The notes beneath the pieces are model-generated. The model saw nothing but the letters and a program-made list of their open reading frames with translations, did not search any database and was not told the DNA's origin. Positions 21,751 to 56,100 of a stretch of DNA of 64,000 bases are shown here, piece after piece. Numbering within the stretch: position 1 is the stretch's first letter; each line of letters starts with the position of its first letter. The DNA lies in contig OZ316894.1 in assembly GCA_973895155.1 (NCBI GenBank), forward strand, positions 24,612,709 through 24,676,708. Direction: 5' to 3'. Source of the stretch: Marsupella aquatica (Eukaryota > Plantae > Marchantiophyta). Made by a program: the position numbers and the translations under genes.

Positions 21751-23370
21751 CTATGCCGCCTCTTTGGGCAAATCAGAAATTTTTGGATCCTGCTGGAGAG
21801 CTGATTTGCCAGTCAGAAAAGTATTCTGTGGGGCCTGCCCCTTGATCGAGAAGATTTCCCTGATCAGCTTTCCTTTCCAGAACAAGATGGGGATGCAAAT
21901 CATCCAGACACCCGCCACAACAGCTCCTTCCGTTCCGAACGATTGCAGGGCGCCGTGTTTCGTGACCCATTTGACTTGGAAGTAGGGAACCGCGAACCCT
22001 CCGAGAATGCGAGCCCAGTTGAGCAGAGCACTGCATTCCCCTTCTCGACCAGGAAAGCTCGCGCTGACGTAGGAAATCACGGCCACGATGATGAACACGT
22101 TGCCCACCTGCACCATTCCCCAGCCGAATACCACGCCAGCGATGTTGGCCTTGTGCTCAATCGTCCAGCCGAAGAGGACCATGCCAGCAACGTAAAGAAG
22201 CAACCCCACCACGGTCCCGATCAAAGTGTCCTCTGACTCGAACACACCCTTGTCCCGTCTCACGCTCAGGTAGATCGCAAACTGGTTGAAAAATCTGGCA
22301 AGAATCTCTCCGAGGAGCACCGCAATAATCGGTGTCAGATAGATAGTCGACACGATATCGGGCTTGTACCCGTACCCGATCGGCTTGGGTGATTCCAGGA
22401 AGACCGGATTGGTGACATTGATTCCTACCGTGAAGCCGAACGAGGCCAAGGCAAGGAAGGCGATGAGGAAGAAGTGAGGACGCCAGAGCACGTCAACGAC
22501 GTCGATGGCTGCTTGCCACATTGTCGTTCTGTACCTACACAATTTCCACCCGGTCACACCGAGCAGAGTCTCGATGCGGTACCGCATTCCGCTGGTCGGG
22601 CGAGCTGGAATCGGCTGAAGGTGGCGGTCATAGATAGTCTCTTCGAAGAACAATGCGATCATGAGGACGACGAAACCGCAGTAGAAGCACGAGACTCCAT
22701 ACGCCCATCGCCAGCTCTGGCGTGCAGCAAGGTATCCGAGCAACCATGGTGAGACGTAGGGCGAGACAACGTAGCCGAACGTCCAAATGGTAACTTTGCG
22801 ATGGACGAGGTGGACGGGGAACATGTCCACAATGGTGTACAGTCCAGTCACCTGCGGTGCGGTGGAGAAGAAGGCGTTCAGGCAGCGCATTGCTGCAAAC
22901 GTGGTGAGGTTGGGAGAGAAAGTGCAGCCGATCTGAAAGGCGAGGCCCAACACTTGGGACCAGAACATCACCGGAAGCCTACCAAACCTCCGAATGAAGA
23001 GCACCGCCGCGACACCGCCAGGCCCGAGGAGGAAGATGGACCAGTTCGAGGTCAGGTTGTTGATGGTGTTCACGGAGGTCTTGAATTGAGCCGCCAGATT
23101 GAAAAGCGTCGCGATGCCCACGCCCGAGCAGAAGTCCGGGACAAACGCGGCGAGGGTGGCGATGAAGAGCATGAGAGCTTTCTTGCCATTGCTCCAGTTC
23201 TGAGGATCGTGCGGGCTGTCCGTCGGTTGTGGCCATAGCACGTACTTCCCATTCTTAGTGAGCTTCAGCTTGCTAGCGATCTCTTCGCCATACTCGATGC
23301 GTGCCTCTTCAGGATCCAAGACGTATCGACCATCTCGTTGTTCATGGTGTCCATGCACATCAGCTACCAT
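21751..23370 (-). CDS. Intronless major facilitator superfamily transporter, fungal DHA1/HOL1-like
   Basis: 539-aa ORF with about 12 hydrophobic segments. It has the N-terminal VLWPQPTDSPHDPQNWSNGKK motif typical of fungal MFS drug:H+ antiporter-like proteins, plus RRFGRLPV, IVDMF, SWRW and FFEETIYDR. Confidence 0.9.
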   Translation of the reverse strand: MVADVHGHHEQRDGRYVLDPEEARIEYGEEIASKLKLTKNGKYVLWPQPTDSPHDPQNWSNGKKALMLFIATLAAFVPDFCSGVGIATLFNLAAQFKTSVNTINNLTSNWSIFLLGPGGVAAVLFIRRFGRLPVMFWSQVLGLAFQIGCTFSPNLTTFAAMRCLNAFFSTAPQVTGLYTIVDMFPVHLVHRKVTIWTFGYVVSPYVSPWLLGYLAARQSWRWAYGVSCFYCGFVVLMIALFFEETIYDRHLQPIPARPTSGMRYRIETLLGVTGWKLCRYRTTMWQAAIDVVDVLWRPHFFLIAFLALASFGFTVGINVTNPVFLESPKPIGYGYKPDIVSTIYLTPIIAVLLGEILARFFNQFAIYLSVRRDKGVFESEDTLIGTVVGLLLYVAGMVLFGWTIEHKANIAGVVFGWGMVQVGNVFIIVAVISYVSASFPGREGECSALLNWARILGGFAVPYFQVKWVTKHGALQSFGTEGAVVAGVWMICIPILFWKGKLIREIFSIKGQAPQNTFLTGKSALQQDPKISDLPKEAA

Positions 23371-23550
23371 TTTTCCCCGTTAATCAGCTGCTGCCTCGAA
23401 TTCTATACTCCAACAAAATCTAAGGGAGAACCTTAGTCATGTCGACAAAATTCTTTCTCGCTTGATCTAGGACTGGTCATCAGTCAATCGACCGATTGAC
23501 GAGATGTCAGGCACGATAGATAGTTTAGGAGAAGTTCAGCAACTATGCAG

Positions 23551-29819: not shown

Positions 29820-30162
29820 TGTTAGATATTGCTCTAGTCTTGTGACTCATGAGCTAACTACAGTTAGTCTAACTTGGGTTAGGACTTAGCTAATGTTAGC
29901 GGTAGTGCTGTTGTGCATATAGCCAGGGCTGATGCCAGACCCTGGTGGAACTTAGACTCATTGTTACGGAGCTAGTTGAGAGATAGGGAGAGCTTGTGCT
30001 GTGAATGCTTGGTATGGCCGGTCGGCCTAGAGTGCAGTAAAGCTCTTGTGTGTTCCCGTGGACGTAGCCTCATGTGGAGGTGAACCACGTGTCTCTCTGT
30101 GTTGACTATTGTGCGTTGATGGTTCATGGGCTTGCCGTTACGAATGTCGCCTATGCTCAACA
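29820..30162 (+). repeat. Copia 5' LTR
   Basis: 343 bp; about 8 substitutions and 2 small indels versus the 3' LTR (by-eye count). Confidence 0.95.
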
Positions 30163-31885
30163 AGTGATATCAGAGCATGTCTGGGAGGTGACGAGGTTTT
30201 TTCGTGACAGGTTTTTCTAGCGTTCATTGTCGATGGTACATTCAGAATTTCGTCGCATGAAACTTGAATGTGTATGGCTGAGCAAATAGGTTAGTGAGAG
30301 GGCTTTCTAACGGTGGTTAGAACTCGCTGATCGGTATCCGTGGTGGGAAGGAATTGAAGTTTGCATCGTTCAGGGTTTATTCGTGTTCGATGGTATTTCG
30401 GGGGAGAGACCAGAGTTTGCATTTTCAACGGTGTGAGCTGTGCGGTACGGGAGGGATCGCACATTATAGCTCATGTTGAAGGTTGAAGCGAGCTGGTCGT
30501 TTTGGTAGCTGGATTGCTGCCGAGTTGTTACCGAGTGCGACGTGACGAGTGAAGGAGGCGTTCAGGTTTTTTCACAAGCTATGGAGCTTGTTCTCATCTG
30601 AACCGGGTTTCTCTTCGTGACGTCCAACTCGGTGGAAGAAACACGAAGTGCTACGGCTCAATGGTTTGATCGCGGCGAGGTGGTCGTTTTGAGTCTGGGA
30701 TTGGCACTTGACGCGGAGTGAAGGCAACGCGGCGGAAACTTTTTCTCTACTGGAGCTGCAGACTGTGCCGGTGCAATTCGACAACTTTTCTCGTCGCCAG
30801 TATTCACTTTTCTTGTTTAAAATGGCGGCTGATAAGGTGAGTAATCGGCATTTTGTTTTGGTAGAGGGTTAATTTTTGACTTAAGGTGGTCTAAAGGGAC
30901 CCTGTGTGTGTATACACACACATTCGGGTGTGTATACACACACCCGAACCCCACCCCTTTCTCTCCCTCACCCCGATACTTCTTGGCCCCGTATAATCAT
31001 TTTCCCCCCCTCCTTTCCGTCATTTCAGCCGTAGCGACAAGCTGCACAGCGCCGGCAGGCGCGTTTGCAGCCGCCTTGCCTACCTCGCCCTCCCCTACGT
31101 CTTTTGCCTGGCGCCGGCCTTGCTCTCGCGCCCCCGGTCGCCCATGCCCCGCCCCCTTCAGCGTGTGCCGTGTCGGGCTAGCTGCCCCTTTTCATTTGAG
31201 CCCCCCCCCTTTATGGTTACCACGCGACCTGCCGGCCGCGTTTAAGCCCTTCAGGCGACCGCCTCCTCACCCCGGTCCGGCCCTGCTGTATGCCTGTACG
31301 CCTTGTAAACACCCGGCCCGATACACGTATTCTCCCTGGCCTTTTTTTATATACTCGTATTTATGTTTAAGGGGCTTATCACCCCCTTTAAGGGCCTATT
31401 TTAAACCAATTTTCCCTCTTTTGGTTCTCCTTGATGTCGGGAGCTGCCACCCTCCGTTTTAACCACTTGGATAGGGGGAACGGCCCCCTGTGAGACCTGT
31501 TGGACTGTGCAGGAATATTCCCAAAAAACAAAGAGCTGTTTTTTGGCCGTCCGACAAAGATGTCGTCCGCCGAACGGTAACTATTTTGGTTCTTTTTCGG
31601 CGAGGACGTTGCCACTGGAGTTAGCAACGCGGCGCACCGATCACATCGCGATTCCGACGATGGGTTGTACTAGGTATTTTGGTTATTCTCCAAGGTGGTC
31701 AAAACGAGGGAGTTTCCCAAGGTTTTACCCACCCCGACCAAAATTTGAATAACTTTTCTGTCGAATTTTGATTTTGATTTCGGCTTTCAGTATTGGACTC
31801 CTAGCTTTGTGGGCTACGCGGTAGTGTTGAGTTTTGAGTTTTATGAGAAGTTTCGAAAAAAGATATTTTTTTGTGATTGTTTCAT

Positions 31886-32724
31886 ATGAGTGACTCGGAG
31901 GATACTGGAAGAATTGGCATCGGTGGAGCTTCAGGATCGCAATGGTCAGACGGTGAGTCTGAGGAGGAGCTGCTACCGTTTGAGGAAGAACTAGTAACAC
32001 CAGTACGATCACCGATGTGGCGTGCAGTGGAGGAAGCTGTGTTACTACCAGAGCTATCGATAGTGGGGAAGAAGAGGGAGATGGCTAGATTTTGAGGAGT
32101 GAAGTTTGAGGTGGAGAAGTACGATGGTCGTACTGATTACTTGCTCTGGGAGAAGCAAGTGAAGGGTGTTCTACGGGCCATGGACTTAGCTCATCTACTT
32201 TCATCGCAAGAGCAGTATGATGGAGAGGAGGAGATTTCTGTGAGACAATGGAGACAGGAGCAGGTGATTGCTGTCAATGCAGTGATGCTATACCTCAAGC
32301 CGCATATCATCAAGAAGCTAGATGATTATGAAAACTTTGCATCACTATTCAAGGCTCTAAGAGAGAAGTACTACCAGGAAGATGCGTCAGACCGGCTGTA
32401 CAAGAAGTCTCTCTTGATGAGCCTCAGGCTCAAGGAAGGGAGCAAGCTGGAGGATCACCTAGATGAGTTTGACAGTCTAGCGGTTGATCTGTCAAACTTG
32501 GGAAAAGGAGTTGAAGATGAGGATAAGGCCTTGCTTCTGCTAAGCTCCTTACCGCCGTCATATCAGGGCTTGAAACAGGTACTCTTGTACAGAGATTTGA
32601 AGTCCATTTTGTATAATGAGGTGGTGAGCTCTTTACTGTCTGATGATGCTCACAAGAAGCTGGGTCAATCACAGATAGCATCTTCTTCTTGCACTGCGCT
32701 CCATGTGAACAAGGGAAGAGCAAC
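31886..32724 (+). pseudogene. gag: Copia gag, 5' part (in-frame stop at 32093-32095), interrupted by the Gypsy insertion
   Basis: KFEVEKYDGRTDYLLW, HLDEFDSLAVDL and DEDKALLLLSSLPPSY (UBN2/Retrotran_gag_2-type motifs). Confidence 0.9.
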
Positions 32725-32830
32725 TGTAAACCAAGAAAATAATTAAGTAGAATTAGTGGAGAAACGTCAAGCAGAAGTTAATAGATCAAGTATTAAAGGG
32801 ATCGGTGGCAGGTAGAAATAGCTTAGTAAG

Positions 32831-33427
32831 ATGGCGGGGAGACTAACTTTAGAAGGCACGAAAATTTTTGCTATTTGGAGTAGTATCGGACTAGGGTTTT
32901 GCTATGAAGGATGCAATACCAAGCTAGGAGACGGTAGAGATTGCGCTCTGGGGGTGAAAGCAAGACAACGAAGGCGAATGGGAGAAGAACGATTGAACAT
33001 TTTCAGCAAGGATCGAGGCACTCATATTTGCAAGCTCATAGGAGAAGGGAAGCCCATGTTCAGATTTATGATTTGCCTTAGGGAGGGAGACTGCCGAGTA
33101 TGGAATGAAGCAGGGCAACAACTTTTTGACATGAATGGTGAAACTTACCAACGACAATTGACTACTCAAGAAGCTGTTGAAGAATTTTGCAGGGGAATCA
33201 TGTCATCAAAGTGGAACCTGACGTTGGGACGAGAACTCGATCAACGACAACGTCACTGCTGGAGGCTAATCGCCATTGAACGAGTAATTGTTTTTTGGAA
33301 CATTATTGAACTAGAAGATCCATTGAATGTTCATCATGTGACATCAGAGTTCAGAAGCTTAGCCATTGGCAGTTCAGAAACCACGGCTTCAACCACCAAT
33401 CGCTTACAGAGATGTTCGATGCAGTAG
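32831..33427 (+). CDS. LTR-embedded ORF resembling the RPA70 C-terminal OB-fold with zinc ribbon (198 aa)
   Basis: ATG-initiated intact ORF: CYEGCNTKL..C..HIC, then MFRFMICLREG, VWNEAGQQLFDMNGE, IMSSKWNLTL and WRLIAIERV, which parallel RPA1 DBD-C elements. Confidence 0.55.
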   Translation: MAGRLTLEGTKIFAIWSSIGLGFCYEGCNTKLGDGRDCALGVKARQRRRMGEERLNIFSKDRGTHICKLIGEGKPMFRFMICLREGDCRVWNEAGQQLFDMNGETYQRQLTTQEAVEEFCRGIMSSKWNLTLGRELDQRQRHCWRLIAIERVIVFWNIIELEDPLNVHHVTSEFRSLAIGSSETTASTTNRLQRCSMQ

Positions 33428-33589
33428 TCTCAGTTGAATAGAGTATACCAATCGGGAACTACAAATTGCGGTTGAGTAACCGCAAAACAACAGTTTATTA
33501 ACTGCTATGCAGTTATGTTCGATTAGTAAGTTAGATAACCATTTTTGCCAATCGGGCAGTTGGAAACCGATAGTTTTGCCGGAAGATAG

Positions 33590-33596
33590 TATTTAA
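33590..33596 (+). promoter_or_regulatory. Candidate TATA box of the Gypsy LTR
   Basis: TATTTAAGGC in mid-LTR, downstream of the embedded ORF. Confidence 0.4.
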
Positions 33597-34747
33597 GGCA
33601 GACAAGAGCGTAGAGCGTAGAGCAGGTGTCACTTATTGCATTAGTAAATCTGGCTGTGAGGCGTAGCCGTGCTCCCTTGGGATTGCCAGTTGTTTGTGAA
33701 AGTGTTCCCTACTCAGTTATGAGTAGAATTTTGAGTTCAGAAGTAAAGAATGTAATGTTGCGAGATAGCAGACGATGATTATGAATGAATGTCAATTGAG
33801 ATTAAGAGTTGAGAGAAAGAGAAGAGTGGTTGAATAGGACAATCCAATAGGTGAGATATGACGAGAGAGTCGCACTTATTGAAATTGTAACCTTAACAAG
33901 GAAACTGCATAAAATAGAAATTGTTAAGTCGCTCAATCGTTAAACGCAGGTATGTATGAAGATTTACTCACTTCGAGTGAGGACTTTGAGGTATAACAAC
34001 TCAAGAAGTCAATTCAACAGACAAGTGGTGCGTAGCAGAGTCTGGTTGGAGATTGTGTGGTTTGAAGGTGACAATCTGGTCATCATACACCTCCTTCATA
34101 ACGGAGTAATTGTCGGATTGGTGTTTCTACTACGAATAGCTATTCTTGAATTACTCTATCATATACGAACTTGATTACTCGAAGAGTAAATCAATGAGAC
34201 AATTGGGTCTAAGAGATCACAATTCCTGGAAATATGAATCCTGACAGCAAGAATCAAGATAGTCACTCACTAATTAGACTCAGACCGATAGAATTGTGGA
34301 TCTGTTCAATCGGTTTGCACTTGATCACTCGTCGGTTGAAGGAAGAAAACATTCCAATTTGTATCTTCACTTACCGTGAGTGGTGTGGGTTTATAGACTG
34401 AGATTGTGTACCGAGAAGGGTTAGTCTTAACTGAGTCGATTGTACCTAAGAAGTGGAAGGAAGAAGTAGACATCGAAGAACATTCAGCGGAAATCATAGG
34501 TTCAGAGTATGAAAAAGATTTACTAGATTACCCTGTTGTTGGACGATTAATAGGTTAATAGAAAAGCGAACGAATAGAGAAGAGTTAAGTTGAGTTAATC
34601 GTAGGGAAGAAATAATGTTTAACATTTTGGCGACCATACTGGGGAATGCTTTGAAGGGTTCTTAGAGAAGGAAGCTGCTAGTACTTGCAGCCCAAACCAA
34701 GAAACGGTTGAAAACAGATCAAGAAGTGAGTTCAACGGAAGAAAAAC

Positions 34748-35029
34748 ATGAGTGAGAGGAAAGAATTTTGGACATTATTCTATTTTGATGAAGATACGGA
34801 GCTGCCCATTATTACGACGCTGGATGAAGAGGAGTACAAGAACTTGATAAGCGGAGAAAACAACGCTAGAAGAGGAGATGTTATACTGATCGTGCATACC
34901 ACCGCGACGCATACCGAACTGGTGATACGAGAAGCACGTAACGGAGTGTGGGGAGTTTGCAGAAGCGCAACACATCCTCGACTCAGTCTACACAAGGCCT
35001 TCAACAGCAGTGATAATGGTGCCCAGTAA
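34748..35029 (+). CDS. Short ORF between the PBS and gag of the Gypsy element (unknown function)
   Basis: ATG ORF of 93 aa with protein-like composition, about 100 bp after the PBS. Confidence 0.35.
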   Translation: MSERKEFWTLFYFDEDTELPIITTLDEEEYKNLISGENNARRGDVILIVHTTATHTELVIREARNGVWGVCRSATHPRLSLHKAFNSSDNGAQ

Positions 35030-35499
35030 CAATCTGCCGAAGTGCTGCATACAAAGTCGACTTCCAAAGAAGAAAGTTGAGTTAAAGAAAGTGTTGGAGT
35101 GGTGTCGGTGGAATCGCAACGAGTATCCAATAGCAATCGCACTTCAAATTGGTAGGATTACTAGATGGCTGAGTATAAAGCTTAAAGAGAATACAGGAGC
35201 TTGCAAAAGCTGTACGTTATGATGTAAGGAGGATAGTTTCAAGTATTATTTGTTAGCACAGCTGCTGACGATGTGCTTCGAAACGGAGTTGATGACTCCG
35301 GAGGACTATACACCCACAATTAGCGAATAGATGTTGTTCCAATGGAGCACATAGTCTCAGTTAAGTAAAGGAGACGGTATCAATCCTGTATGTACTGAGA
35401 ACGCGGATTATTATTCCATTGCAACAAATTTTTGGAAATGACTTCACCTTGAAGATTGTGAATGATGGTTGATCGATCTTGATTAAGTACTATTGATAG

Positions 35500-36612
35500 A
35501 TGGGTAAAACACCGATTAGAGAAGAAGAAATGGAGAGTGAATTTGAAGCCTTTCAAGAGAGTAGACCAAGAGTAGAAATTGATGACAAAATTGAAACATC
35601 CAGAGCACAAGAGAGAGAAGAGCAAGTTATGGAAGATACAATGGAACGACTTAAGATTCAACCTACAGGTGGAAGTAATTTGAGAATAGTGCCAACTGCG
35701 ATACGGTGAGTTAAAATACCAACTTTCAAAGGAGCATCGGACGAGGATGCAGATACGCATTTGGCTCGGTTTGAGGAGATGCTCAGAGCTAATCATGAAC
35801 AGAACGATACAGCACAATTAGAGCTATTTCCGAGTTCTTTGGACAAGGAAGCATTTGTATGGTACACACAATTTCCCGCTGATCACTTTAAAACCTGGCC
35901 TGATTTTGCAAAAGAGTTTCTAGATCATTATAGGAGAGCAAAAGAAGAGTCAGATCTTTATAGTATACTACAGAACATGACACAAAAGAAGGGTGAACCG
36001 GTGCAAAATTATATTGGACGATTAAAAGTAACTATGAGACGATTAACAAACAAACCCTCAGATGGTCAAAGGATTAGTTGGATGAGGAAAGCAGTAAAAG
36101 GAAGTCTAGTAACGGTGGTAGAACAAAATCCTACTTCTAACGCAGATGAGTATGAAAAGAGATTAATACGATTAGAAGGCATCACTCAAATGTTGAATCA
36201 GGAGAAAAATGAAAGCAGTAATGATGAGGAAAAAGTGAGCCATAAGGCGAAAACAGCTAAAATTGAAAGCAAAGAGATTAAGGAACGACAGGAAAATAGA
36301 GAATGGAACGAGAATAGTAACCAGAAATTTTGCGAAATCCACATGAGGTCAGGACATACCACCCAAGAATGTAACCAAAATCCCTTTAAGAAAAAAACAA
36401 ATGTGGGGGTCAATCATGTAGGAACAAGTAAACAAGAGGGAGAGCGTATAGAGGCTAGCCAAGGTTACTACAATCCTGACAGAAATCTTAACCGAAGACC
36501 GTATAAAGAAGGGGGAGTCAAATACCCCCCTATTTGTTTTTACTGTCGATTGACAGGACACATAAGAGGCCCAGATTGCAAAAAGGTGGATGAAACACAT
36601 GAAGGAATTTAA
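35500..36612 (+). pseudogene. gag: Gypsy gag (one in-frame stop at 35707-35709)
   Basis: IPTFKG..DADTHLARFE, LFPSSLDKEAFVWY, MTQKKGEPVQNYIGR, and knuckles CEIHMRSGHTTQEC and CFYCRLTGHIRGPDC. Confidence 0.9.
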
Positions 36613-37188
36613 GGAAGAAGTTGCCGCAAAACCACCAGCACCGGTAAACACAGTAAAGGTAGCGGCTTATGTGGTGACCAGATCTCAAGGACAGCTTGGA
36701 GAGTCGGCACCAGAAGACCTTCCGACCGGGAATGAGGCCATTTTTTATTGGCAGCGTATGGATACAACGACACACAATGTGGTCGACGGGATTCGTCGAG
36801 AACAACAAAATGAGGTATTACCTCAACCAGGATGATTAACACGTTCTGAACCTTATGTTGAGGTTGAAACTGAGATTCTGGAAGAACAAGAACCGATTCG
36901 CAATTTAAACCCGGATCAATCGTGTGATAACGATAACCTACCAGCAACACCCGAAGAAGCAAGTTAAAGGATGGCTGACAAGCTAGTGCAGCTTATATAA
37001 AAAACACGGGTAGATCTTACCATTGAAGAACTGTTTCAATTAGCACCACAATGTAAGGAAGCAGTGTTAAGAAAGTTGGAGGGTAAAACAACCCCGACAA
37101 CATTGCCAGGAGTACCTTTATATCAAGCAGGAAAAATTTCTTTAATTGATAAAGGAGTAGTAGTCCAAATAAGTGTAAAGGGAATCAA

Positions 37189-39365
37189 TTGAAGAATGTT
37201 CTATTGGATGGAGGATCTGCAGTAAATATTATGAGTGAACGAACGTGTAGAATGTTGGGAAAGGTGAAATTATTACCAGCACCTTTTAATTTAGTAATGG
37301 CTGATCAGAGCAGTTGTCACCCACTAGGTTATGTACCAGACTTACCTATGTTAATCTCAGGCATTAAGTATAATCTGGGCGTAGTAGTTCTGAGGGACGC
37401 AGACTCTACCATGGGGCAACCAATGCTGTTGGGACGGCCATGGCTACGACAGGCCAAGGTTAAGCAACACTGGGGGAAAGACAAAGATTATATTAAAATT
37501 GAACATCATGGAGAAATATTCAAGATTCGTACTAAAGCCATCGATGATAGCACACCACCCATAGCTAGGGTATGTACACTTAATTGGGCTGAAGGGTTGA
37601 ATGAAGAGGAAGAAGAAACTTATATGAAATGTCGTCCTGACTTAATACCAATTAGTGAAGTGGAAGTGGTTAAATTGGACGACATACAAGGGATGACCAG
37701 AGAGAAAATGGATCATGATTTGAGAAATGATTTATTGAATCACATTAACCCACAAGGCATTCAAGATTGCTCTCTAGTAGAAGAAGAAGCTACCACGACC
37801 TTGAAAAATATTCCAGAAAAATTCATCAGCTGAAGTACCACTGAAGAAGAACATACTCAAAAGGTTAATTTGGGCGACGATGAAAAACCTTGAGAGGTAA
37901 AAATTGGAAAGCAACTGACGCAGGAAATCAAACAACAACTTACTACTCTACTTGAGGAATTCAAGGACGTTTTTGCTTGGGATTATACCGAGTTAAAAGG
38001 TATACCAAAAACGATTGGAGTACATCGGATAAGGTTGATACCAGGAACGGTACTAGTACAAACGCAACGGTATCGAATGAACCCAAATTATGCTGAGAAG
38101 GTCAAAGAGGAAATACAAAGATTACTGGATGCAAAATTTATTGAACCCGTTAATCGTTACACATGGTTATCACCCATAGTAGTAGTACCAAAGAAAAATG
38201 GGAAACTCAGGGTATGCATTGATTTCCGCAAGTTAAATGCAACAACGATTAAAGATCCATTTCCTGTACCTTTTCTTGAAGCAGTATTAGACGTTGTAGC
38301 GGGGAAATCCGCATATTCATTTCTGGATGGTTACAGTGGATATAGTCAGGTACGATTAGCTTCGGAAGCTAGAGAATTAACAATGTTTATTACGGAATGG
38401 GGTGCATTCCAATGCTTAGTATTACCTTTTGGATTATGTAATGGGCCCAGCACATTTCAGAGGCTTATGATGATGCAGTTCCATGAATACTTAAATCAGT
38501 TCATGCAAATCTTTCTTGATGACTTTACAATATATATGGGGAGGAAGAATAGCACATTAACCATCTAAGATTATGTCTGTTAAGATGTAGAGGAGGGGTC
38601 AGTTTAAATCCGGACAAATGTACATTTTTTGTACCATCAGGGAAAATATTGGGTCATATAGTATGCAAACAAGGTCTATTAGTGGATCCTAACAAGATTA
38701 AGATTATAAAAGAAATGCCAGTACCCACAAGTGCAACGCAAGTGAGAAGGTTCTTAGGGAGTGGAGGTTTCTATCGACGATACATCAAGGGTTACTTGCA
38801 AATCAGCGCTCCTCTAGCGCGATTAACCGGTAATCATCAAGCTTTCAATTGGGACGACGACTGTCAAAAGGATTTTGAGGAAATCAAGGAGCGGCCGTGT
38901 CACACGCCAATACTTAAGGAGCCAGATTGGAAGAAGGAGTTCCATTTGCACACCGACGCATCATTGGTGGCAGTTGGAGTAGTATTAGCACAAACCGGAG
39001 AACAGGGTATAGATTTACCTGTTTACTATGCAAGTAGATTACTGAATGTGCATGAAAAGAATTATACCACCACTGAGAGGGAAGCATTGGCTATGATTTT
39101 CGCTGTAAAAAAATTCAGACACTACTTGTTAGGGAACTGTTTTGTATTCTTTGTAGACCACAACGCTCTGGTTAACTTAGTAAACAAACCTCAATTATCA
39201 AGAAGAATAGCCAGATGGATTCTTTTATTGGCGGAGTTTGATTACACAATTATTTACAAACTAGGAAAAACACATGTTATACCAGATTATTTAAGTAGAC
39301 TAGAATCAAGGGAAGTATCCACTGTAGAAGATGATCAACTACCTGACATGGGATTATTCCAAGAG
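37189..39365 (+). pseudogene. pol: Gypsy pol: aspartic protease, reverse transcriptase and RNase H (stops/frameshifts); truncated before integrase
   Basis: VLLDGGSAVNIM..MLLGRPWL; VVVPKKNGKLRVCIDFRKLN, LPFGLCNGPSTFQR, FLDDF; LHTDASLVAVG, NYTTTEREALAMIFAVKKFRHYL, PDYLSR. Confidence 0.93.
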
Positions 39366-40101
39366 GAAAACTACCCGGTATCAGCAGAAGCTGTCAATGG
39401 AAGTAGAGAGACTACAAAAGAAAGAGGACAACATTGCAACTATCGAACGAGGATGGAGGCACGAAGAAACTGCCATGGAATCACTGGCAGAGTTTTTAGG
39501 CATGAGAACATTCCAAACGGGAGGCTTGACGGTAAACTACAAAGGTGTGACCACAGCGATTAGGGCAACGATTGAAGCAGAGAAGATTGAGAACCGCGAA
39601 GCACAGTTGCAATCCGAAGCGAACGTGGAGTCCTTAAAAGAGGTTAAGAAATTACAGATGCAACTCAAGGATACAGTGGGTAAGCATCGTAAAGAAGCCA
39701 GCAAGTGGGAAAAAGAGCAAAAGGAGGTCAAGGAGATAAAGTTGAAATGGGAAGAATTAGACTCCCAACTCCGTCAAAACATGGGTACAACTTTGCCAAC
39801 AGATATAATGCTAGGGGTACACAAGGAAGCGTTCAACACCAAAATTGACCAATTGAGTAAGCAGTTGCACACAGCGAATGATCGAATTGCAGAATTAGAA
39901 GCACAACTAGTGCAAGCAAAGGCTCAGCGACCAGGCGACGAAGGGAGAATGGAGGAAGTAGAACAGCTCAGGAATGAAAATGATCAGATTTCTCAGGAAT
40001 TAGAGGATAAGGAATGGTGCATTCTAGACATGAAATCCGAAATCCGGAAGCTGAAGGCGCAAAATCGTACAGCAGTAACTCCAAGCAAGAAAACAGGTTA
40101 G
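39360..40101 (+). CDS. 5'-truncated extra coiled-coil ORF between pol and the 3' LTR
   Basis: About 245 open codons rich in E/K/Q heptads, fused directly after RNase H where integrase is expected. Confidence 0.6.
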
Positions 40102-40231
40102 TAGTCGAGAATCAAAGGAGAAGAGTTACGGAAGCGGTGGAGCGAACAACGAACAACGAACAACGAACAGGAAATGATGGTCGATGGAGTAGTAAACGGA
40201 TATCGAGGACGAATCCGTAAGTAAAGGAGAA

Positions 40232-41168
40232 TGTAAACCAAGAAAATAATTAAGTAGAATTAGTGGAGAAACGTCAAGCAGAAGTTAATAGATCAAGTAT
40301 TTAAAGGGATCGGTGGCAGGTAGAAATAGCTTAGTAAGATGGCGGGGAGACTAACATTAGAAGGCACGACAATTTTTGCTATTTGGAGTAGTATCGGACT
40401 AGGGTTTTGCTATGAAGGATGCGACACCAAGCTAGGAGACGGCAAAGATTGCGCTCTGGGGGTGAAAGCAAGACAACAAAGGCAAATGGGAGAAGAACGA
40501 TTGAACATTTTCAGCAGGGATCGAGGACTTTGAGGTATAACAACTTAAGAAGTCAATTCAATAGACAACTGGTGCGTAGCAGAGTCTGGTTGGAGATTGT
40601 GTGGTTCGAAGGTGACAATCTGGTCATCATACACCTCCTTCATAACGAAGTAATTGTCGGATTGGTGTTTCTACTATGAATAGCTATTCTTGAATTACTC
40701 TATCATATACGAACTTGATTAGTCGGAGAGTAAATCAATGAGACAATTGGGTCTAAGAGATCACAATTCCTGGAAATATGAATCCTGATAGCAAGAATCA
40801 AGATAGTCACTCACTAATTAGACTCAGACCGATAGAATTGTGGATCTGTTCAATCGGTTTGCACTTGATCACTCGTCGGTTGAAGGAAGAAAACATTCCA
40901 ATTTGTATCTTCACTTACCGTGAGTGGTGTGGGTTTATAGACTGAGATTGTGTACCGAGAAGGGTTAGTCTTAACTGAGTCGATTGTACCTAAGAAGTGG
41001 AAGGAAGAAGTAGACATCGAAGAACATTCAGCGGAAATCATAGGTTCAGAGTATGAAAAAGATTTACTAGATTACCCTGTTGTTGGACGATTAATAGGTT
41101 AATAGAAAAGCGAACGAATAGAGAAGAGTTAAGTTGAGTTAATCGTAGGGAAGAAATAGTGTTTAACA
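40232..41168 (+). repeat. Gypsy 3' LTR (937 bp, internally deleted)
   Basis: About 19 substitutions versus the aligned 5' LTR (by-eye count); the deletion joins at a GAGG microhomology. Confidence 0.93.
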
Positions 41169-41339
41169 GCAGCGCAGCGCACGAATGGGCAGAACAAGTT
41201 TAGATCTACATCACGGGGGAGATCTAAATCCAGAGGGAAATCGCAAGAGAGGAAACCTCTTGCATGTTGGAATTGTGGCAAGCCTAGCCACATGAAAAGG
41301 GATTGTTGAGTAAAGGTCCCTACTGCCTCTGCTAACGTG
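41169..41339 (+). pseudogene. gag: Copia gag 3' part with CCHC zinc knuckle
   Basis: Continues the frame broken at 32724: GR-AAQRTNGQNKFRSTSRGRSKSRGK...CWNCGKPSHMKRDC*VKVPTASANV. Confidence 0.9.
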
Positions 41340-43371
41340 AGAACCCCAAATTTCCAGTGACAAAACTAATAATTATGCATGGTTGTGGCAATTCAGGGAG
41401 TACTCTCAATGCATTGAAACCACCAATTTCAGAGGCAGATTGTTCTGAGGGAGTCTTGATTGAGCAGAGCAACCCAGACTTCCGTTGGGGCCTTGAGTTC
41501 TCTAGAGTTGATTTTGATTATCTTAGCACAACAAAGAGACGGGAACCCGTGTTGTGCATAAAGGTCAGAACGTCAGAAGGGGAGACTCTTGTAATTGGAC
41601 CTGTAGTCTTCGTTGGAATTGAAGGAAGGGGATTTGTTTCAGTCATTCTTGAGCTCCATGAAAGAATAAGGTGGGTTAAACTTCATCTCCCGTCAAAGGC
41701 GTATTCCTCCGAGTTCAATATTGAGTGGTCTGCAGCTGGAGAACTTGGCGTGTTGTCAATGGGATTTTTCCCAAAATCATATTCAACTCAGAAAGTTATT
41801 GCAGGGGTGAAGGGGATTCTTCCACTTGACATCATGTATGGATTCCAATATGTGAAGCTAAATATCCATAAAAACCAAGGGAATTACACAATCCTGGTGA
41901 CATGGGTTTTAAGTAATCTGCTTGACAAGGCAGGTTTCCTATCTTCAGAGTTAAGTGTTTGGCTTGATAGGAACATTGCATTTGGTGAGGAGTTTGTGAT
42001 GGATAATGCAAAAAAGTGGATAAATTCATTACCCAAGCCTACAAATGTTCCACCAGTAGCGGTGAAAGAGCTTCCACCAGTAGTTGTGAACACAGAAGTT
42101 CCCAAGCCACCAAAAGTATCCTAGGAGACAACAGGGACTGCAAGAACAACAGCTGGGACCGCAGGAACAACAACTGGGACAAGCACCAAAAGAGTGGTAG
42201 GGAAGCGAAGAAGAAGAGAGAGCAAGGAGCACGAGAAAATTGAAACACTGCCAAAGGAACCTGAGAAGAAGCCAGTAGGGAAGAAGAAACAGAAGACTGA
42301 CAAGTCTATCGTGCAGTCAACCCCTGCAGAAGTACAGATGCTCCCAGAAGATGAGGGAGACAAACTTGATGCCCCTGAGGAGAAGAAGGTCTTAGAAGGA
42401 AATGATGTTCTCCAAAGAATAAAGCAGTACTATACTTTTGGGATAAATGAATTGTTTTCTATTCTAGTGGAGAAAATTATGCCTGCACCGGCAAGATTAT
42501 GTTACAGGATGCTCAATAGTACCCATGTGAAGCACATAGCCGAATCCATGGTCAAAAACCCTGGACATAAACCTCATGTTGCGGACCTGCTTCCTTAAAA
42601 TCCAAAGCTTCGAAAGTTGCTCCATTTTGACAGCACGAAGAACGACCGCAAAGACTTTCTTGCAGGTGTGAAGAAAGGCGAGATTGGTTTCTTTGCCATC
42701 AGTGGGCAACATTTGGCTAGGGCGGCCAAGTGGGTTCTCGAATGGGCCAAAACTGATGCCAAGCTCACAGTGTTGGCAAAAAAGTTAAAATACAAGAAGT
42801 CTAGATTATTGTCAGACCTTACACCATCGGCTATATTGGTTGAGCACTCAATGAGATCAAATGCCATCAATTCGACGATGGTGTTTCAATCGTGCTTCAA
42901 AGATACAATTATTCATGCAAGGAAACAATTCATTGAATGCAGAGCACCAAGAAAGCCAAAGCACGGGGACAACAAGTCAAACGCCCAAGACAATCAGAAA
43001 TTTCAGGTGAGAAACATATTTTCTTGTTTGGACAGAGATGGTCTCTGTCCAAGAGAGAGATCGTCCGTTACATTGATTTTAGTTCAATATATTTTTGGTT
43101 ATGACTTGGATGGAGATGGTCTCTGTCCAAGAGAGAGACCGTCTGTTACATTGATTTTAGTTCAATATATTTTTTAGTTATGACTTGGATGGAGATGATC
43201 TCTGTCCAAGAGAGAGACCGTCCGTTACATTGATTTTAGTTCAATATATGTTTTGGTTATGACTTGGATGGAGATGATCTCTGTCCAAGAGAGAGACCGT
43301 CCGTTACATTGATTTTAGTTCAATATATGTTTTGGTTATGACTTGGATGGAGATGGTCTCTGTCCAAGAGT
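41340..43371 (+). pseudogene. Foreign gene fragment inserted in Copia gag-pol: one reading frame to 43006 with two stops and a ParB/Srx-like motif, followed by an intron start
   Basis: ORFs at 41357, 42194 and 42617 share a frame. Motif RMLNSTHVKHIAESM...FFAISGQHLARAAK. CAG|GTGAG donor at 43007. The Copia frame resumes at GTG GCA TCA (43372). Confidence 0.7.
43028..43370. repeat. Minisatellite, 78-79-bp unit, ~4.3 copies, each with a hairpin
   Basis: GAGATGGTCTCTGTCCAAGAGAGAGACCGTCCGTTACATTGATTTTAGTTCAATAT at 43035, 43113, 43192, 43271 and 43350 (last copy truncated). Confidence 0.92.
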
Positions 43372-46300
43372 GTGGCATCAATCTCGCATGAGATAGATTT
43401 ACTCAATGATGATGACATATTGTGATGTCAAGGTTATGCTCTCAACGTAGTGTCAAATCCAGGTAGTGATGACTGGATTCTAGATAGTGCATGTACTTTT
43501 CACATTTGCTCTAGGAGAGATTTTTTCAGTTCTTACACGGTTTCCAACGGGTCAGTGTTGATGGGAAATGGAATCCCATGTCAAGTTGTTGGACTTGGAT
43601 CTGTAAGATTTCAGATGTTTGATGGTGCTGTGAGAACGTTGAGAAATATGAGACATATTTCCAGCATGATGAAAAATCTCATTTCACTTGGAGTTTTAGA
43701 AGCAAATGACCATCAGTGGAGTTTTGCTAATGGTGTTCTTCAGGTTTCAACTGGTACTAAAGTTGTATTGAAGGGAAAGAGACATAGCAATCTATACGTT
43801 TTGGAGGGCAGTGTAGTCTGTGATGAAGCCAATGTAACCTTATCTCATGAGGAGACGGCCCGGCTGTGGCACTTTTGTTTGGGCCACATGAGTGAAAAAG
43901 GTTTGGCTATTCTTCCAAAAAAAGGATTACTTTCTAATTTGCAGTCTTGTAAGTTGGAATTTTGTGAGCACTGTGTGCTTGGGAAGCAGCTCAAGAAACC
44001 CTTCGGAGTTGGAACTCACACCAGCAAGGAGGTACTTGAGTATGTACATAGTGATGTGTGGGGTCCAGCCCCTACTCCCTCACATTCTAGACGATTATAC
44101 TATATCATGTTCATAGACGATTACTCACTGAAGGTATATGTGGATCTACTTTCTACACAATAAGTCTGATGTTTTTACCACTTTTAAGGAGTGGAAAGCC
44201 CAAGTAGAGAATCGGACTGGTAATAAGGTGAGATATCTTTGATCGGATAACGACGGTGAATACAGTTCTGGGGAATTTGGAATGTATTGTAAGGAGCAGG
44301 GGATTACCCGCCATCCCACAACAAGTTATACTCCTCAACAGAATGGTGTTTCTGAGAGACTCAACCAAACACTATTGGACCGCTCGAGGAGTATGTTGAG
44401 TCAATCATGCTTACCACATAAGTTTTGGGCTGAAGCTATCAACACTGCAGCTTATTTGGTAAATTTTTCTCCATCCAGTTCTATTGGATTCAAGACGCCA
44501 TTTGAAATGAGGTACGGGCGTCCAGCAGATTACTCACATCTCAGGATTTTTGGATGTGATGCATATGTGCTTGCACCTTCCCAGCTTCGATCCAAGCTGG
44601 AGTCCAAGTCAAAGAAGTGCATTTTCCTTGGCTATTAAAAAGGTGTGAAGGGTTATAGGTTATGGGATCCAGTAACCTATAAACTAATTGTCAGTAGAGA
44701 TGTGTCCTTTAATGAATCCAGATCATCAAAAGAGGGGGAGAGTTCTCAGGATTCTCATACTGACAAGGGGAAATCTCCCATCCCGGACCAGGTTGAGGGG
44801 GAGATTAGTCATGATGTTGTTCATGATAGGAGAGATGGAGAAGCTCTAGGCTTGGAGCTGGTTCCTATGATGGAACAAGAGGAGCATATTGCTGCTGGGG
44901 TACCTCAAATTCAACTAGCAACAGCAACAGATCAGCCAGAGTCATCTACTAGAAGAACTTCCAGTCGTTCTACTAGAGCTCCTACCAGGTATGGTCAATG
45001 GGCAGACTCATCTAAGCTAGATGACATTGACATTGCACTTGATGATGATGATATGGCTTTGATCTTGGAAGAAGGAGAGCCTTCTTCGTACAGTGAGGCT
45101 TGTGCTTCAGAGCAGAAGCATGAGTGGAATGCAGCAATGCGAGGGAGTTGCAATCTTTGAGTGACAACAAGACATGGGAGCTGGTGGAGCTTCCAAGAGG
45201 TCAGCAAGTGGTGGACAGCAAGTGGATTTACAAGTTGAAGGACAGTCCTTCAGAGGGTGGAGATAAGATCTACAAGGCAAGGCTTGTTGCCAAGGGGTTC
45301 ACTCAGGAGAAAGGAGTGGATTACAATGAGGTCTTTTCATCGGTGGCTAAGTATTCCACAATTTGGATCTTGTGTCAGCTTCTTGAGTTTTTTAATCTGG
45401 TGATGGATCAGATGGATGTTGTTACATCTTTTCTCTATGACAACATGGAAGAGTTGATCTTCATGAGACAACCACTAGGCTTTATGAAGAAGGGCCAAGA
45501 GAACTTAGTTTGCAGATTGCTCAAGTCCTTGTATGGATTGAAGCAATCTCCCAGACAGTGGAACAAGTTTTTTTGATGATTTCATGCTTCCTCAAGGTTT
45601 TACAAGGATGGTGTATGATCCTTGTGTGTATACAAAATCAGTCAAGAATGATGTATTTGGTTTCATCATTTTGGTGATCTATGTGGATGACATGCTGATT
45701 GTGGCTAAAGATCAATCTAAGGTTGACAATTTCAAGGCGAAATTGAGTGCTGAATTCAGGATGAAGGATCTTGGTAAGGCCAAGAGGACTAGGGATGAAG
45801 ATTTTTAGGAACTCTGATACTAGACAGTTGTGCTTGAGTCAAGGCCAATATGCGAGGAAAGTACTTGCACGATTCAACATGGAGAACTATAAGCCAATGA
45901 GTATTCCTTTAGCTTCACATTTCAAGTTATCATCGGCTTTCTCTCCTACGAATGCTGTGGAGAAAGGCCTGATGGCTAAGATTCCTTATGAGAAGGCAGT
46001 AGGCAGTCTAATGTATTTGATGACTTGTACTAGGCCTGACTTGGCCCTAGCGATGGGCAAGGTTAGCAGATTCATGTCAAATCTAGGGAAGGTACATTGA
46101 GAAGCTGTGAAGTGGATTCTAAAGTATCTGAAGGGAACACATGACTATGGATTACTATTCGATGCCAGATCAGATAGAACATTAGTTGGCTATGTAGATT
46201 CTGACTATGGAGGCTGTCTGGATACAAGGAGGTCTACAACTGGGTTTGTATTTACTCTTGGAGGAGGATGTATCAGTTGGAAATCTACCTTGTAGAAGTG

Positions 46301-46646
46301 TATATCTCAGTCTACTACAGAAGTAGAGTATGTTGCAGCAGTAGAAACAGCAAAGGAAACAATTTGGTTGGACAAGTTGATCGCGGAGATGGGTTTAGAG
46401 CATGGCAAAATGACTCTAAACTGTGATAGTCAGAGTGCTCTTCACTTGGCTGCTAACCAGGTGATGAATAGCAGGGTGAAGCACATTGATATCAGGTACC
46501 ATTTTATCAGGCAAACAGTGTCTGATAAACCTTTTGAGCTAGTCAAGATTGATGGAAAGCTCAATCCCGCTGATGCCTTTACCAAAGTGATTCCTTTGGA
46601 GAGTTTCTCAAGACACCGTGCTACTTTGCAGGTTTTGCAGTTATAG
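43372..46646 (+). pseudogene. pol: Copia pol: protease, GAG-pre-integrase, integrase, RT and RNase H, with multiple stops/frameshifts
   Basis: WILDSACTFHIC, LWHFCLGHMS..CEHCVLGKQ, VHSDVWGP, PQQNGVSERLN, YKARLVAKGFTQ, LYGLKQSPRQW, YVDDML, GYVDSDY, RVKHIDIRYHFIR. Confidence 0.95.
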
Positions 46647-46853
46647 TACAAGTAGAGTTATTTAGCAATGTGTGACTATTTGTATATGGATTACTCATTC
46701 CTGTTTGGCTACGGCTTAGTTCTAGTTAACCCTTAGTTAACCCTTGTGGTTTTTAGGGGGAGACCTGGTTTGGTGATTGTCTAGAACTTCCCGCCAAGGA
46801 TTCCATATGGTAGCATTTAGTCCAATCCCCAAGACAAGAGTCAAGGGGGAGTT

Positions 46854-47200
46854 TGTTAGATATTGAGTCTCTAGTCTTGTGACTCATGAGCTAACTACAG
46901 TTAGTCTAACTCAGGTTAGGACTTAGCTAATGTTAGCGGTAGTGCTGTTGTGCATATAGCCAGGGCTGATGCCAGACCCTGGTGGAACTTAGGCTCATTG
47001 TTACAGAGCTAGTTGAGAGATAGGGAGAGCTTGTGCTGTGAATGCTTGGTATGGCCGGTCGGCCTAGAGTGCAGTAAAGCTCTTGTGTGTTCCCGTGGAC
47101 GTAGCCTCATGTGGAGGTGAACCACGTTTCTCTCTGTGTCGACTATTGTGCGTTGGATGGTTCATGGGCTTGCCGTTACAAATGTCGTCTATGCTCAACA
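46854..47200 (+). repeat. Copia 3' LTR
   Basis: 347 bp, followed by TSD GATTC at 47201-47205. Confidence 0.95.
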
Positions 47201-51281: not shown

Positions 51282-51613
51282 TGTTGGAAATGAACCACAC
51301 TCGAACGAAGATGGATACAGCCACAAAGGGCCTGTAGCTCAGTGGTAGAGCACTACGATGTACACGGGAATTCCTAGGTTCAATTCCTAGCCGGTCCATG
51401 TTGTTGAAAGTTCCAACATGGTATCAGAGCCAAAGAAAAGGAATTTCCCTTATAGCGAGTGCGGCTCAAGGGTGGGTGTTGGAAATGAACCACACTCGAA
51501 CGAAGATGGATACAGCCACAAAGGGCCTGTAGTTCAGTGGTAGAGCACTACGATGTACACGGGAGTTCCTAGGTTCAATTCCTAGCCGGTCCATGTTGTT
51601 AAAAGTTCCAACA
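51282..51613 (+). mobile_element. TRIM (non-autonomous mini LTR element) with tRNA-derived LTRs (Helenus-like)
   Basis: 137-bp LTRs at 51282-51418 and 51477-51613 (TGTTGGAA..TTCCAACA, 3 substitutions), PBS TGGTATCAGAGCC at 51419-51431, PPT AAGGGTGGG, TSD GTCAA. Confidence 0.95.
51328..51398 (+). ncRNA. tRNA-like module with Pol III A/B boxes in the 5' LTR (second copy 51523-51593)
   Basis: GGGCCTG/CCGGTCC-A acceptor stem, TAGCTCAGTGGTAGAGC D-arm (A box), CTAGG-TTCAATT-CCTAG T-arm (B box). The anticodon arm pairs poorly. Confidence 0.8.
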
Positions 51614-53180: not shown

Positions 53181-56100
53181 CTATATCGTAGCTGGCCTTT
53201 GATCTTGTTCACGTGCCGCAAATGCAGTTGTATCGATCCGCATTTCCACCCCTAGGGTCCCGTTGCTCGCAAACTGTGCAGGACAGGGCACGTTCAACTC
53301 TGATGTGACAAAACGAACAATATCTGCAGTGACATCCCCTATTCCGAGCTTGTTGAGGGTTATCGCTATGGAAAAGTTGTGAGAAGGATCACAAAAGCCG
53401 GTCGACCCACCTAACCCAGAATGGCCAAATGCACAACTGTCTACCACGGGAAGACCATCATCCAAAAGGGGTTCCATCCTCATGAACCCTAGACCGAATC
53501 GCCCCACAGGAATTGCAATATCGCTGCACTGACCTCTCCCAACAAAATTCTCCAAAATCCGGGGGTCTTTATATAGCTTGTCTTTCTGCTGTTCTGGTGA
53601 AGAGATTGATGCAACCTTCCTGCCAAGTTCCTTATCACCGATGGTAGCTTTACCATTCTTTTTTTTCCCCCTTCCCGTGCTGATCAGTTTGACTTTATTG
53701 GGATATTGAGGATGGCTTCCTAAGGGGGGTTCACTAGAAGACTCACTCTTTGGAGCAATCCCACCAGTAGCCATCGTAGCATAGTATCTGGCGAGGGCCC
53801 GGGCAGAGAAATGGCCGTTGGCTGAAGGTATAATCGCTCGACGAACCAAGAGAGTGTTGAATATGAAAGGAAGAGTCGAGAGGGTACGAATCGCATCACC
53901 CGGCCCCGTACCAAGAAGTTTCCTAACCCGTTGCTCTAGGGCTCCCTCTCCGTCAGCAGCTCCGTCGTTGCTTGATAGAGACTGTAAAGCAGATTTGGCA
54001 AACGCCATCTTCAATTCATCTGCGTCCAATGTAAGTGACGCCAGGCGAGTCTCCACACCTGCATCAACCCGATTTTAAAGTTCACATAATTATTTGATAA
54101 AAAGCTTGGCGTATCTGAAGCATGAAAGAGTAAAACTCAAGATCACCTGTCGTAATTGCGGGGAAGTAGTTGTCTGAAACTTTGCTAAAATAGGAACTGT
54201 TACGTCTTAGTATCTAAGCAATAGTATGACAGTCCTTGGATGTTCATCCTCATACACCACACCGTCTGGCAGATAGAAGCCTCCTGCTTGACTTCCCACG
54301 GTGCCCATATCAAATTCCAACAATACCCAGTTTTAAAATATTCACCTGGTGGAATGCCAATATAAAATTCCCCTTGTACGTGCAGGTGATCGACCAACAC
54401 ATCCTCCAGCAGTTTTTGAAATGGTTGTCCTGTTGCTTTCTGGTCCAGGCAACAGAAGTAAATAGTTCGTGACAATTATCAAACGCACATTCACATTTTC
54501 GATTCTTCACAGATGCAGAACGCCATTATTCAAATCAATGCTTCAATCCTTGGCTCAGACCATAAATCTTTGGCTTGCTGCAACACCTCTTGTGCAGTCT
54601 AGAAAAACTCAGTTGTCATGTTTTCTTTCTAGGCTTTCCAAATATCGCCTTAACTACAATTTCTCTCAATTTAAAAAAGGCAAATTTTAATACTGACACG
54701 CAAGTGTTTAATTTCTTAGCATTCTTAACCACGTCTAACTAGATCCAATCGAAGACTGAACTGAGCTGAACTGAACTGAGCTGAACTGAACTGAACTGAA
54801 CTGAACTGAGGAGTAGATCAGAACCTCTGCAATTCCTCCACAGAGCCAACCGTAAGTCAGGGTATGATAGTGCTGCTCGCTTCCAGGTACAGTCTCTGGA
54901 ATGGCTTCAGCAATTTGGGCTAGTGTGTCTGACCAATTACACATCGACATTGGATTCTGTCGAGCACCTGCCAACGCATTTTGTAATCCAGCAGTATGAT
55001 TCAGCACATTCGCAACCTGCATGCCAAACCAAGCCATACCCATTCGATATTACCACTCGCGAAATACTTCTAATTCATACTTAGTGTGAAGCTCTTTAAT
55101 GTGGTGTTTGCTATAAAGAACAGGAAATCTAGTTGAGATTGGACCAACGCTGCATAACTGGTCTGTTCCAAGACTGGACGCACATTCGTCGTTTCATGCT
55201 TCTCATTCTCATTTACTTCATTACCACTCCAGCTAAGGCCCAAGTTGGCCAATAAGTGATTCAGAGTGCTCCACTTTCTAAACACAGGAATACGTAGCTA
55301 TTGATTCAATAGCTACGAATCAATATACACAATGACTATTGGCATAGAAGTGGAACTATTGCATCTAGGCAAGAATCCTGAATAGTTACAGATCATTGCT
55401 TCATCGGAGACAACTCCTTCACTTTCTCATGAAATTGAAGAGAACGATAAGCAGTGAATGACATTGATTTCCCCATGAAGATCTGAGCGCCGACGTAGCT
55501 TAAACAAAGATCCTATCCAGCAGCATGTAGGAAAACCACTCATAAACAACTCGTTTGATATCGCACTTTGGATACAGGAGGATTCACATGGACATAACGA
55601 CAGACAGTTTTTATTCTAACTTTATGATAAAACCTGCATGTTGTTCCTCATGACGATAGTGATGTGAGGAATTCTCGCGTTTACCCATAAAAAAAATGTC
55701 AACAGAACAGCGTACAAGAGGCACTGCTCTTACAACATGAGCAACTTTCTAGAAATCTGAAAGTAGCTTGGAACTGTTGAGAAAGCTAACTAATTGGCCA
55801 GAACAATACTCACTGTAATGTTCTCCTTTCCATTGACTCCAAACTCTGGCCAGTAGGTGGAAACTTTTTCACGGAGGTCAATTTTCCTGTTATAAAATAT
55901 AACCAAATAAGATAAAACCCCAAAGAATCCGATGAGATTAGCAATTGGTATGCATCACCGATCCTTTCGACTGTCGAATCACTTGTGACTTTCCAAACTT
56001 GTCCAATGAAGGCAAAAGGCGACATTTAACTGCCTCGCGTGTAAAGTCAGATAAATGCATGAGCATGGTTCTCCATCATGATGTGTTCTCCATCATAGTA

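Follow-up and report, generated by a model that had tools for sequence, protein, structure and literature searches.

HIV nef is an accessory gene that lies inside an LTR. The sag gene of MMTV is another, and it uses several promoter routes (PMC4667437). Plant LTRs are treated as non-coding, and for most extra ORFs of plant retrotransposons no fold has been assigned. The domains reported for such ORFs (eORFs) in the consulted part of a survey are ATHILA, PMD, Transposase_28, SMC, LOG and others, with no RPA or OB fold among them; the survey floor was 250 codons (PMC6317226), so that a frame of 198 codons would be missed. RPA-derived genes are known as cargo of a different class of plant element, the Helitrons (PMC3288121). 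The available parts of two further sources (PMC5890265, PMC12885004) do not mention RPA, and the literature searched, mostly open papers, yielded no report of an LTR retrotransposon with an RPA or OB-fold gene. RPA cargo in Helitrons and LTR-borne genes as in MMTV are each known, and for their combination we found no report.

Here we describe an ORF of 198 aa in the LTR of a Gypsy element from the liverwort Marsupella aquatica, the product of which is predicted to adopt an OB fold of the RPA70 DBD-C type. The window, meaning the whole stretch of DNA that was analysed, is 64 kb long.

The open reading frame and its LTR

The features of the element, its insertion site and the ORF were as follows.

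29832..47155 (+): host Copia element, gag interrupted by the Gypsy insertion
32720..32724 (left) and 41169-41173 (right): target-site duplication, 5 nt, GCAAC/GCAGC, one mismatch
32725..34624 (+): 5' LTR, 1900 nt, TG...CA
32791..32797 (+): TATA-like site TATTAAA, about 40 nt before the ATG, by motif scan; possible promoter of the ORF itself
32831..33427 (+): 198-aa ORF; predicted RPA70 DBD-C-like OB fold at residues about 1-155, conserved C28/C38/H65/C67, basic loop 39-64, C-terminal amphipathic helix motif at about 169-179
33590..33596 (+): TATA-like site after the ORF, by motif scan; candidate main LTR promoter
33947..33956 (+): putative splice-donor-like site CAG/GTATGT in the downstream LTR part, by motif scan
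34625..34644 (+): primer-binding-site-like sequence, begins TGGCGACC after three T
35500..36612 (+): gag, Retrotrans_gag E 4e-12, in-frame stop near 35707
37153..37833 (+): protease-like region, DGGS motif by eye, without Pfam match
37894..39563 (+): reverse transcriptase and RNase H, broken frames, integrase absent after
39328..40101 (+): coiled-coil extra ORF, sense, directly behind RNase H
40217..40231 (+): purine-rich tract preceding the 3' LTR, by sequence
40232..41168 (+): 3' LTR, 964-nt internal deletion, with about 62 codons of the ORF (ATG 40339)

The frame is open throughout from ATG to stop and is directly preceded by an in-frame stop. LTR bounds were set by self-BLAST and alignment and placed the ATG 106 nt inside the 5' LTR, which agrees with the original prediction of an intact ORF about 100 bp inside a 1.9-kb 5' LTR. 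Both LTRs have TG...CA termini and align as two blocks (295 nt at 96.6% and 646 nt at 98.5%), while 964 nt (33015-33978) are missing from the 3' LTR with the deletion junction at a 4-nt microhomology. The 3' LTR therefore holds only about the first 62 codons, or roughly the 5' third, of the ORF. The recurrence of the 5' part at 40339 had been claimed before, and the LTR alignment bore it out. This remnant contains no stops and matches the family profile described below at E 3e-20. When the LTR was resampled 2000 times under a first-order Markov model, no ATG frame reached 198 codons, and the longest had 192. The relatives found by HMMER search support a conserved family and not a chance frame. 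The coding frame lies within the LTR and is represented in both LTRs, partially in the 3' copy. The ORF belongs to the LTR and is a real, conserved LTR gene. By virtue of this position each insertion makes two copies of it, and solo LTRs would keep one.

Two TATA-like sites bear on how the gene might be expressed. The original prediction had placed the ORF upstream of a candidate TATA at 33590. A TATA-like site is present there, and with the donor-like site at 33947 it fits a U3 gene that would be expressed via a spliced RNA into the 3' LTR. The prediction had missed a second site at 32791, before the ATG, with a 3' LTR counterpart at 40298 (TATTTAA), which would fit a promoter of the ORF's own. 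Given this site 40 nt ahead of the ATG, U3 placement can be proposed only tentatively. In the present copy only the own-promoter route could work, because the gene in the 3' LTR is cut by the deletion.

A contig of one public run (X3) shows a deletion junction (33018 / 40523) identical to that of the 3' LTR, and the insertion with the deleted LTR may be common to the sample of this run. The middle of the LTR (33764-34054) had a contig depth far below that of its flanks in all four runs and is a variable segment among LTR copies. The LTR's downstream half holds two short sense frames (33956-34174, 72 aa with a hydrophobic stretch, and 34234-34401, 55 aa), and a third lies just after the primer binding site (34748-35029, 93 aa); none of the three gave a significant Pfam match.

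The Gypsy element and its Copia host

The element shows TG...CA LTRs, a 5-nt target-site duplication, a primer binding site, a polypurine tract and the order gag-protease-reverse transcriptase-RNase H of Ty3/gypsy elements, the protease being recognized by motif only. Contigs of three of the four public runs join across the Gypsy element and thus show an empty Copia site. Its gag-pol region carries about seven breaks in 4 kb, both stops and frame changes. In this copy, a six-frame scan of 34625-40231 showed neither an rve match nor an integrase motif. The missing integrase raised an integrase-independent, annealing-based insertion such as that described in PMC11042837, which we did not adopt; clean ends and the 5-nt duplication point to ordinary integrase action. 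The non-Met-like primer binding site and the extra ORFs hint at a member of the non-chromovirus clade (Athila, Tat, Phygy, Selgy) (PMC6317226 supplement 5).

In the region 39240-40101, RNase H runs directly into a coiled-coil frame of 257 codons, an arrangement which recalls SMC-like eORFs. In two runs there are contigs whose sequence departs from that of the window just before 39386, so that this point varies among copies. No homologues of the coiled-coil ORF were found among 313 candidates, nor did tblastn show similarity to the N-terminal parts of the Riccia proteins described below.

Predicted fold

The original prediction had read the protein against the RPA1 DBD-C pattern, and structure prediction upheld this. 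An AlphaFold2 model built with 59 sequences had a pLDDT of 83 and a pTM of 0.72, with pLDDT mostly above 90 over residues 1-150 and a low tail; a single-sequence model (pLDDT 32) was discarded. RPA70 DBD-C was the top match in Foldseek (best E 1.5e-5, TM about 0.5), so that the proposed check by AlphaFold and Foldseek returned an OB-fold match, and the first 14 rows were all RPA-containing entries from human, fungi and archaea. The VIA structure search, which is independent of Foldseek and covered 48,161 chains, likewise placed RPA70 C-domains first, together with Teb1 OB-C (Z 11.1-11.9). The RPA70 C-domain reached Z 11.9 at an rmsd of 6.9 over 137 aligned residues, the closest fit was to Ustilago RPA70 (Z 11.7, rmsd 2.7, 128 aligned), and Teb1 OB-C followed at Z 11.1 (rmsd 4.3, 124 aligned). 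Next came CTC1, Cdc13, archaeal RPA and POT1 at about 8 (Z 8-8.8), followed by bacterial SSB/PriB with Z under 8. An RPA70 DBD-C-type OB barrel with a metal-site insertion is a well-supported prediction of this model.

Sequence searches did not reach this similarity. The proposed check against Pfam PF08646 (Rep_fac-A_C, cut-off 28.5 bits) failed, the ORF having no match at E 1; sub-threshold scores of 13.5-14.9 bits occurred in two of the 57 family matches and in one further relative. PDB searches by the ORF and by the family profile returned nothing, and the ESM Atlas gave no usable feature match for the ORF or its relative P0004, whose Atlas model had a pLDDT of 0.31 and whose structure rows were ignored. 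A viral structure library gave no match at E 0.001, with weak SSB-like rows only.

After a variable linker, a C-terminal motif L-x3-L-x2-L-x-L/I was present in 22 of the 33 listed proteins of at least 157 aa, a count which includes nine proteins of one near-identical cluster and one match in a core strand. Residues 170-177 of the window protein, within this motif, were modelled as a helix in the weakly modelled tail (pLDDT 47-58).

Protein family and candidate zinc site

A HMMER search gave 57 matches, 16 of them under 1e-10 and the best at 46% identity; three (P0008, P0028, P0043) were dropped as repetitive and unrelated, leaving 54. An organism was given for 11 of 30 looked-up matches, and all 11 were liverworts (4 Calypogeia fissa and 7 Riccia sorocarpa). 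These named relatives occur several per genome on different scaffolds and are often truncated, which would suit a mobile gene. In a tree of 49 rows the window protein fell into no supported group, and the 7 Riccia rows formed one clade. Searching a word index with the ORF as single query gave no match among 30 candidates, and searching it with the family alignment gave 9 matches, one of them partial (P0068). No relatives were found in viral contigs in three scans. Two loci from the 140 candidates of a metagenome scan were rejected, one being a chance match in a bacterial gene (L001) and the other the same match (L002).

The 54 relatives, which share less than 50% identity, keep Y25, C28, D34, G35, C38, L40, H65, C67 and F79, and W16, W91 and W128 are further conserved columns. 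The DBD-C of RPA70 is a four-cysteine zinc ribbon. No such ribbon was found in the conserved ligand columns here; C, C, H and C stood at C28, C38, H65 and C67 in 43 of the 53 rows with letters at all four positions. We consider C-x9-C-x26-H-x-C to be the likely zinc site judging from the alignment, and this CCHC site is predicted. The original prediction had also proposed paired zinc ligands, with a first pair in GFCYEGC. This assignment has to be revised: C24 of this motif is C in only 7 of 55 rows, and C38, which is conserved, had been overlooked. The loop between C38 and H65 has a net positive charge in 55 of 57 rows (median +4), and R45, R48, R60 and R62 are kept in 39-48 of 55-57 rows. 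The ORF and its relatives make up a liverwort protein family that is as yet unannotated and whose zinc site is remodelled.

Other RPA domains were not found by Pfam in the 57 matches, and no DBD-A or DBD-B precedes the DBD-C-like part in the 198-aa frame. Riccia gene models (P0020, P0030, P0045, P0046) have coiled-coil and RING parts, or another domain, ahead of the OB domain; perhaps these represent a 3' accessory cassette of related elements. Nine near-identical relatives (P0016, P0058-P0065; 3-6 differences) were each found on a Logan contig of 0.96-1.35 kb and could represent a stand-alone transcript.

Variation, possible selection and spread among copies

Variants were taken from four DNA-like public runs of two studies, and the best-supported 40 of 63 listed sites in and around the ORF were used, each treated singly. 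They comprised 18 synonymous and 21 non-synonymous changes and one stop. The 18 synonymous changes among 40 compare with 12.6 expected under the same spectrum (p 0.05). Synonymous changes made up 10 of 18 at sites polymorphic between copies and 7 of 19 at sites mostly private to this copy, in bins chosen post hoc. None of the 40 variants alters a ligand or an invariant residue. The two LTR copies of the window differ at nine positions, three synonymous and six not as classed by eye, and these differences look neutral. No indel reaches a share of 25%, and copies that are about 80% alike align gap-free over 130-334 nt, although 3 of the 32 pieces listed do have gaps. In all four runs, the part of the ORF that only the 5' LTR retains showed a contig depth 2.9-6.1 times the internal mean; such depth is not a copy number, and its rise hints at travel in LTRs.

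Selection among copies is weakly indicated by this marginal test. Protein conservation, judged from the family alignment irrespective of where the distant relatives lie, is the stronger sign of constraint, and we infer purifying selection on the ORF.

Possible functions

Our preferred reading, to which we assign a probability of about 0.4, is a selected accessory gene in the Gypsy LTR whose predicted OB protein would bind the element's own ssDNA in trans during reverse transcription. The product would be a single OB-fold protein, predicted to bind zinc and likely derived from the RPA70 C-terminal domain, with descent from RPA70-type domains of either the host or a Helitron. Its expression would rely on a spliced RNA that extends into the 3' LTR or on a promoter within the LTR's first 100 nt. 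Bound ssDNA might be protected or chaperoned in trans; substrate and step are guessed from the fold alone. We favour ssDNA binding because the nearest folds all bind ssDNA and because the remodelled loop is basic. Against it counts that a shared fold shows no function and that identity to RPA70 is 9-13%. Gag nucleocapsid already is a chaperone in such elements. RPA70 itself has a C-terminal amphipathic helix that bundles with RPA32 and RPA14. Within RPA, DBD-C binds ssDNA weakly and belongs above all to the trimerization core (PMC8210275), and a lone copy may therefore bind ssDNA poorly.

For the same reason a decoy that captures RPA32 and RPA14 is a serious rival, if in our estimate an unlikely one. 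Every LTR, whether intact or solo, would be a source of the decoy, which would draw both subunits into a trimer without DBD-A, -B and -F and might loosen replication-coupled silencing or redirect ssDNA repair at the element. The RPA70-like amphipathic motif at the C-terminus of the window protein and of most full-length relatives would suit such a role, as would several VIA alignments that reach residue 616, the end of human RPA70. However, the helix itself is poorly modelled and the best rmsd is obtained when it is left out, about 17 N-terminal DBD-C residues are unmatched as the alignment starts at human residue 458, and a global RPA decoy would cost the host. Arabidopsis RPA2 mutants release silencing while DNA methylation is kept (bioRxiv 10.1101/2023.04.11.535823); the link between RPA and silencing is thus known from host mutants, and in the literature searched we found none from a transposon protein. 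If true, the decoy would represent a transposon counter-defence at the replication fork and not at DNA methylation. By analogy with Teb1, POT1 and CTC1, the OB fold might instead have become specific and, with its enlarged arginine-rich zinc loop, read a word of the LTR or RNA of the element itself and drive transcription, export or local anti-silencing. The conserved loop arginines and the tie of Teb1 OB-C with RPA70C in VIA (Z 11.1 vs 11.9) speak for a sequence-specific regulator of this kind, and a regulatory role is often assumed for the extra ORFs of retroviruses and plant elements (PMC7264820), but no repeated word of at least 60 nt was found in the element besides the LTRs, and we regard this role as improbable.

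Quite improbable to us is that the frame is a functionless passenger, a Helitron-type or host RPA fragment captured in the LTR, with the conservation of its relatives earned elsewhere in DNA transposons or host genes. It is true that plant Helitrons commonly carry RPA genes (PMC3288121), that Riccia models fuse the domain to coiled-coil/RING parts and that the selection signal within the family is marginal; moreover, next to the some seven breaks in gag-pol, one open frame of 600 nt alone is no proof of selection. Yet the ORF has its own ATG at a point common to many stand-alone relatives, is intronless and without DBD-A and -B, and keeps the four ligands and the terminal helix motif, and its mostly gap-free copies and the lack of frequent indels also count against this reading. 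In addition, Pfam found no Helitron Rep/helicase domain in 26 of the 29 long frames of the window, and the ORF lies within the LTR bounds. A last alternative concerns only the placement of the ORF and is compatible with any function: transcription could start at the upstream TATA-like site (32791/40298), so that the ORF would lie in the 5' leader and gag-pol would be reached via splicing or re-initiation. The ATG context (A at -3, G at +4) agrees with this. On the other side, U3 would then measure less than 100 nt and the 5' UTR about 10 nt, and the TATA-like site at 33590, with a splice-donor-like site behind it, fits a usual LTR layout; we think a leader position doubtful at best.

Other features of the window

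A second insertion in the Copia element (41340-43390) contains three frames (262, 157 and 192 codons), none of which has a Pfam match. The 192-codon frame, which terminates in 79-nt tandem repeats (43015-43370), has a GQH motif reminiscent, to the eye, of ParB-like transposon domains. A segment at 25762-25980 matches part of the Copia LTR at 82% and may be an older solo LTR. A tRNA-Tyr gene (51328-51398) lies within a 137-nt direct duplication (51282-51613). Host-like sequences were an uninterrupted MFS transporter-like frame of 542 codons (21751-23379, minus strand), a piece of a zinc-binding dehydrogenase (2723-3259, plus strand) and a weak piece of beta-lactamase fold (53181-54074, minus strand).

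Comparison with known systems

An LTR gene with a predicted fold tied to DNA replication and repair bears on whether retrotransposons supply or subvert RPA. In its predicted OB barrel, metal-site insertion and two-helix cap the protein resembles RPA70 DBD-C (human 8rk2_A and 1l1o_C, Ustilago 4gop_C, PF08646) and Tetrahymena Teb1 OB-C (3u50). Unlike RPA70 it is a stand-alone protein of 198 aa with CCHC ligands, without DBD-A, -B or -F, and it falls below the Pfam cut-off. With plant Helitrons the element shares a cargo gene derived, in its own case probably, from RPA70, but Helitron RPA has DBD-A, -B and -C beside Rep/helicase in a rolling-circle DNA element, whereas here a single domain is found in the LTR of a retroelement (PMC3288121). 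Like MMTV sag, the ORF is an accessory gene in an LTR with several possible promoters, of a kind kept in solo LTRs; the proteins are unrelated, MMTV is a vertebrate retrovirus and U3 placement is presumed for the liverwort gene (PMC4667437). Among plant elements a close parallel are the extra ORFs of non-chromovirus Ty3/gypsy elements, accessory frames beyond gag-pol, which as described lie in the internal region and not in the LTR, and among which the surveys name no OB fold (PMC6317226; PMC7264820; PMC11963269). KnitGypsy-Dnmt3 is likewise a streptophyte Gypsy with a host chromatin or DNA-metabolism domain under selection, but its DNMT is fused in Pol, whereas the OB-fold protein predicted here is encoded by a gene of the LTR (PMC5890265).
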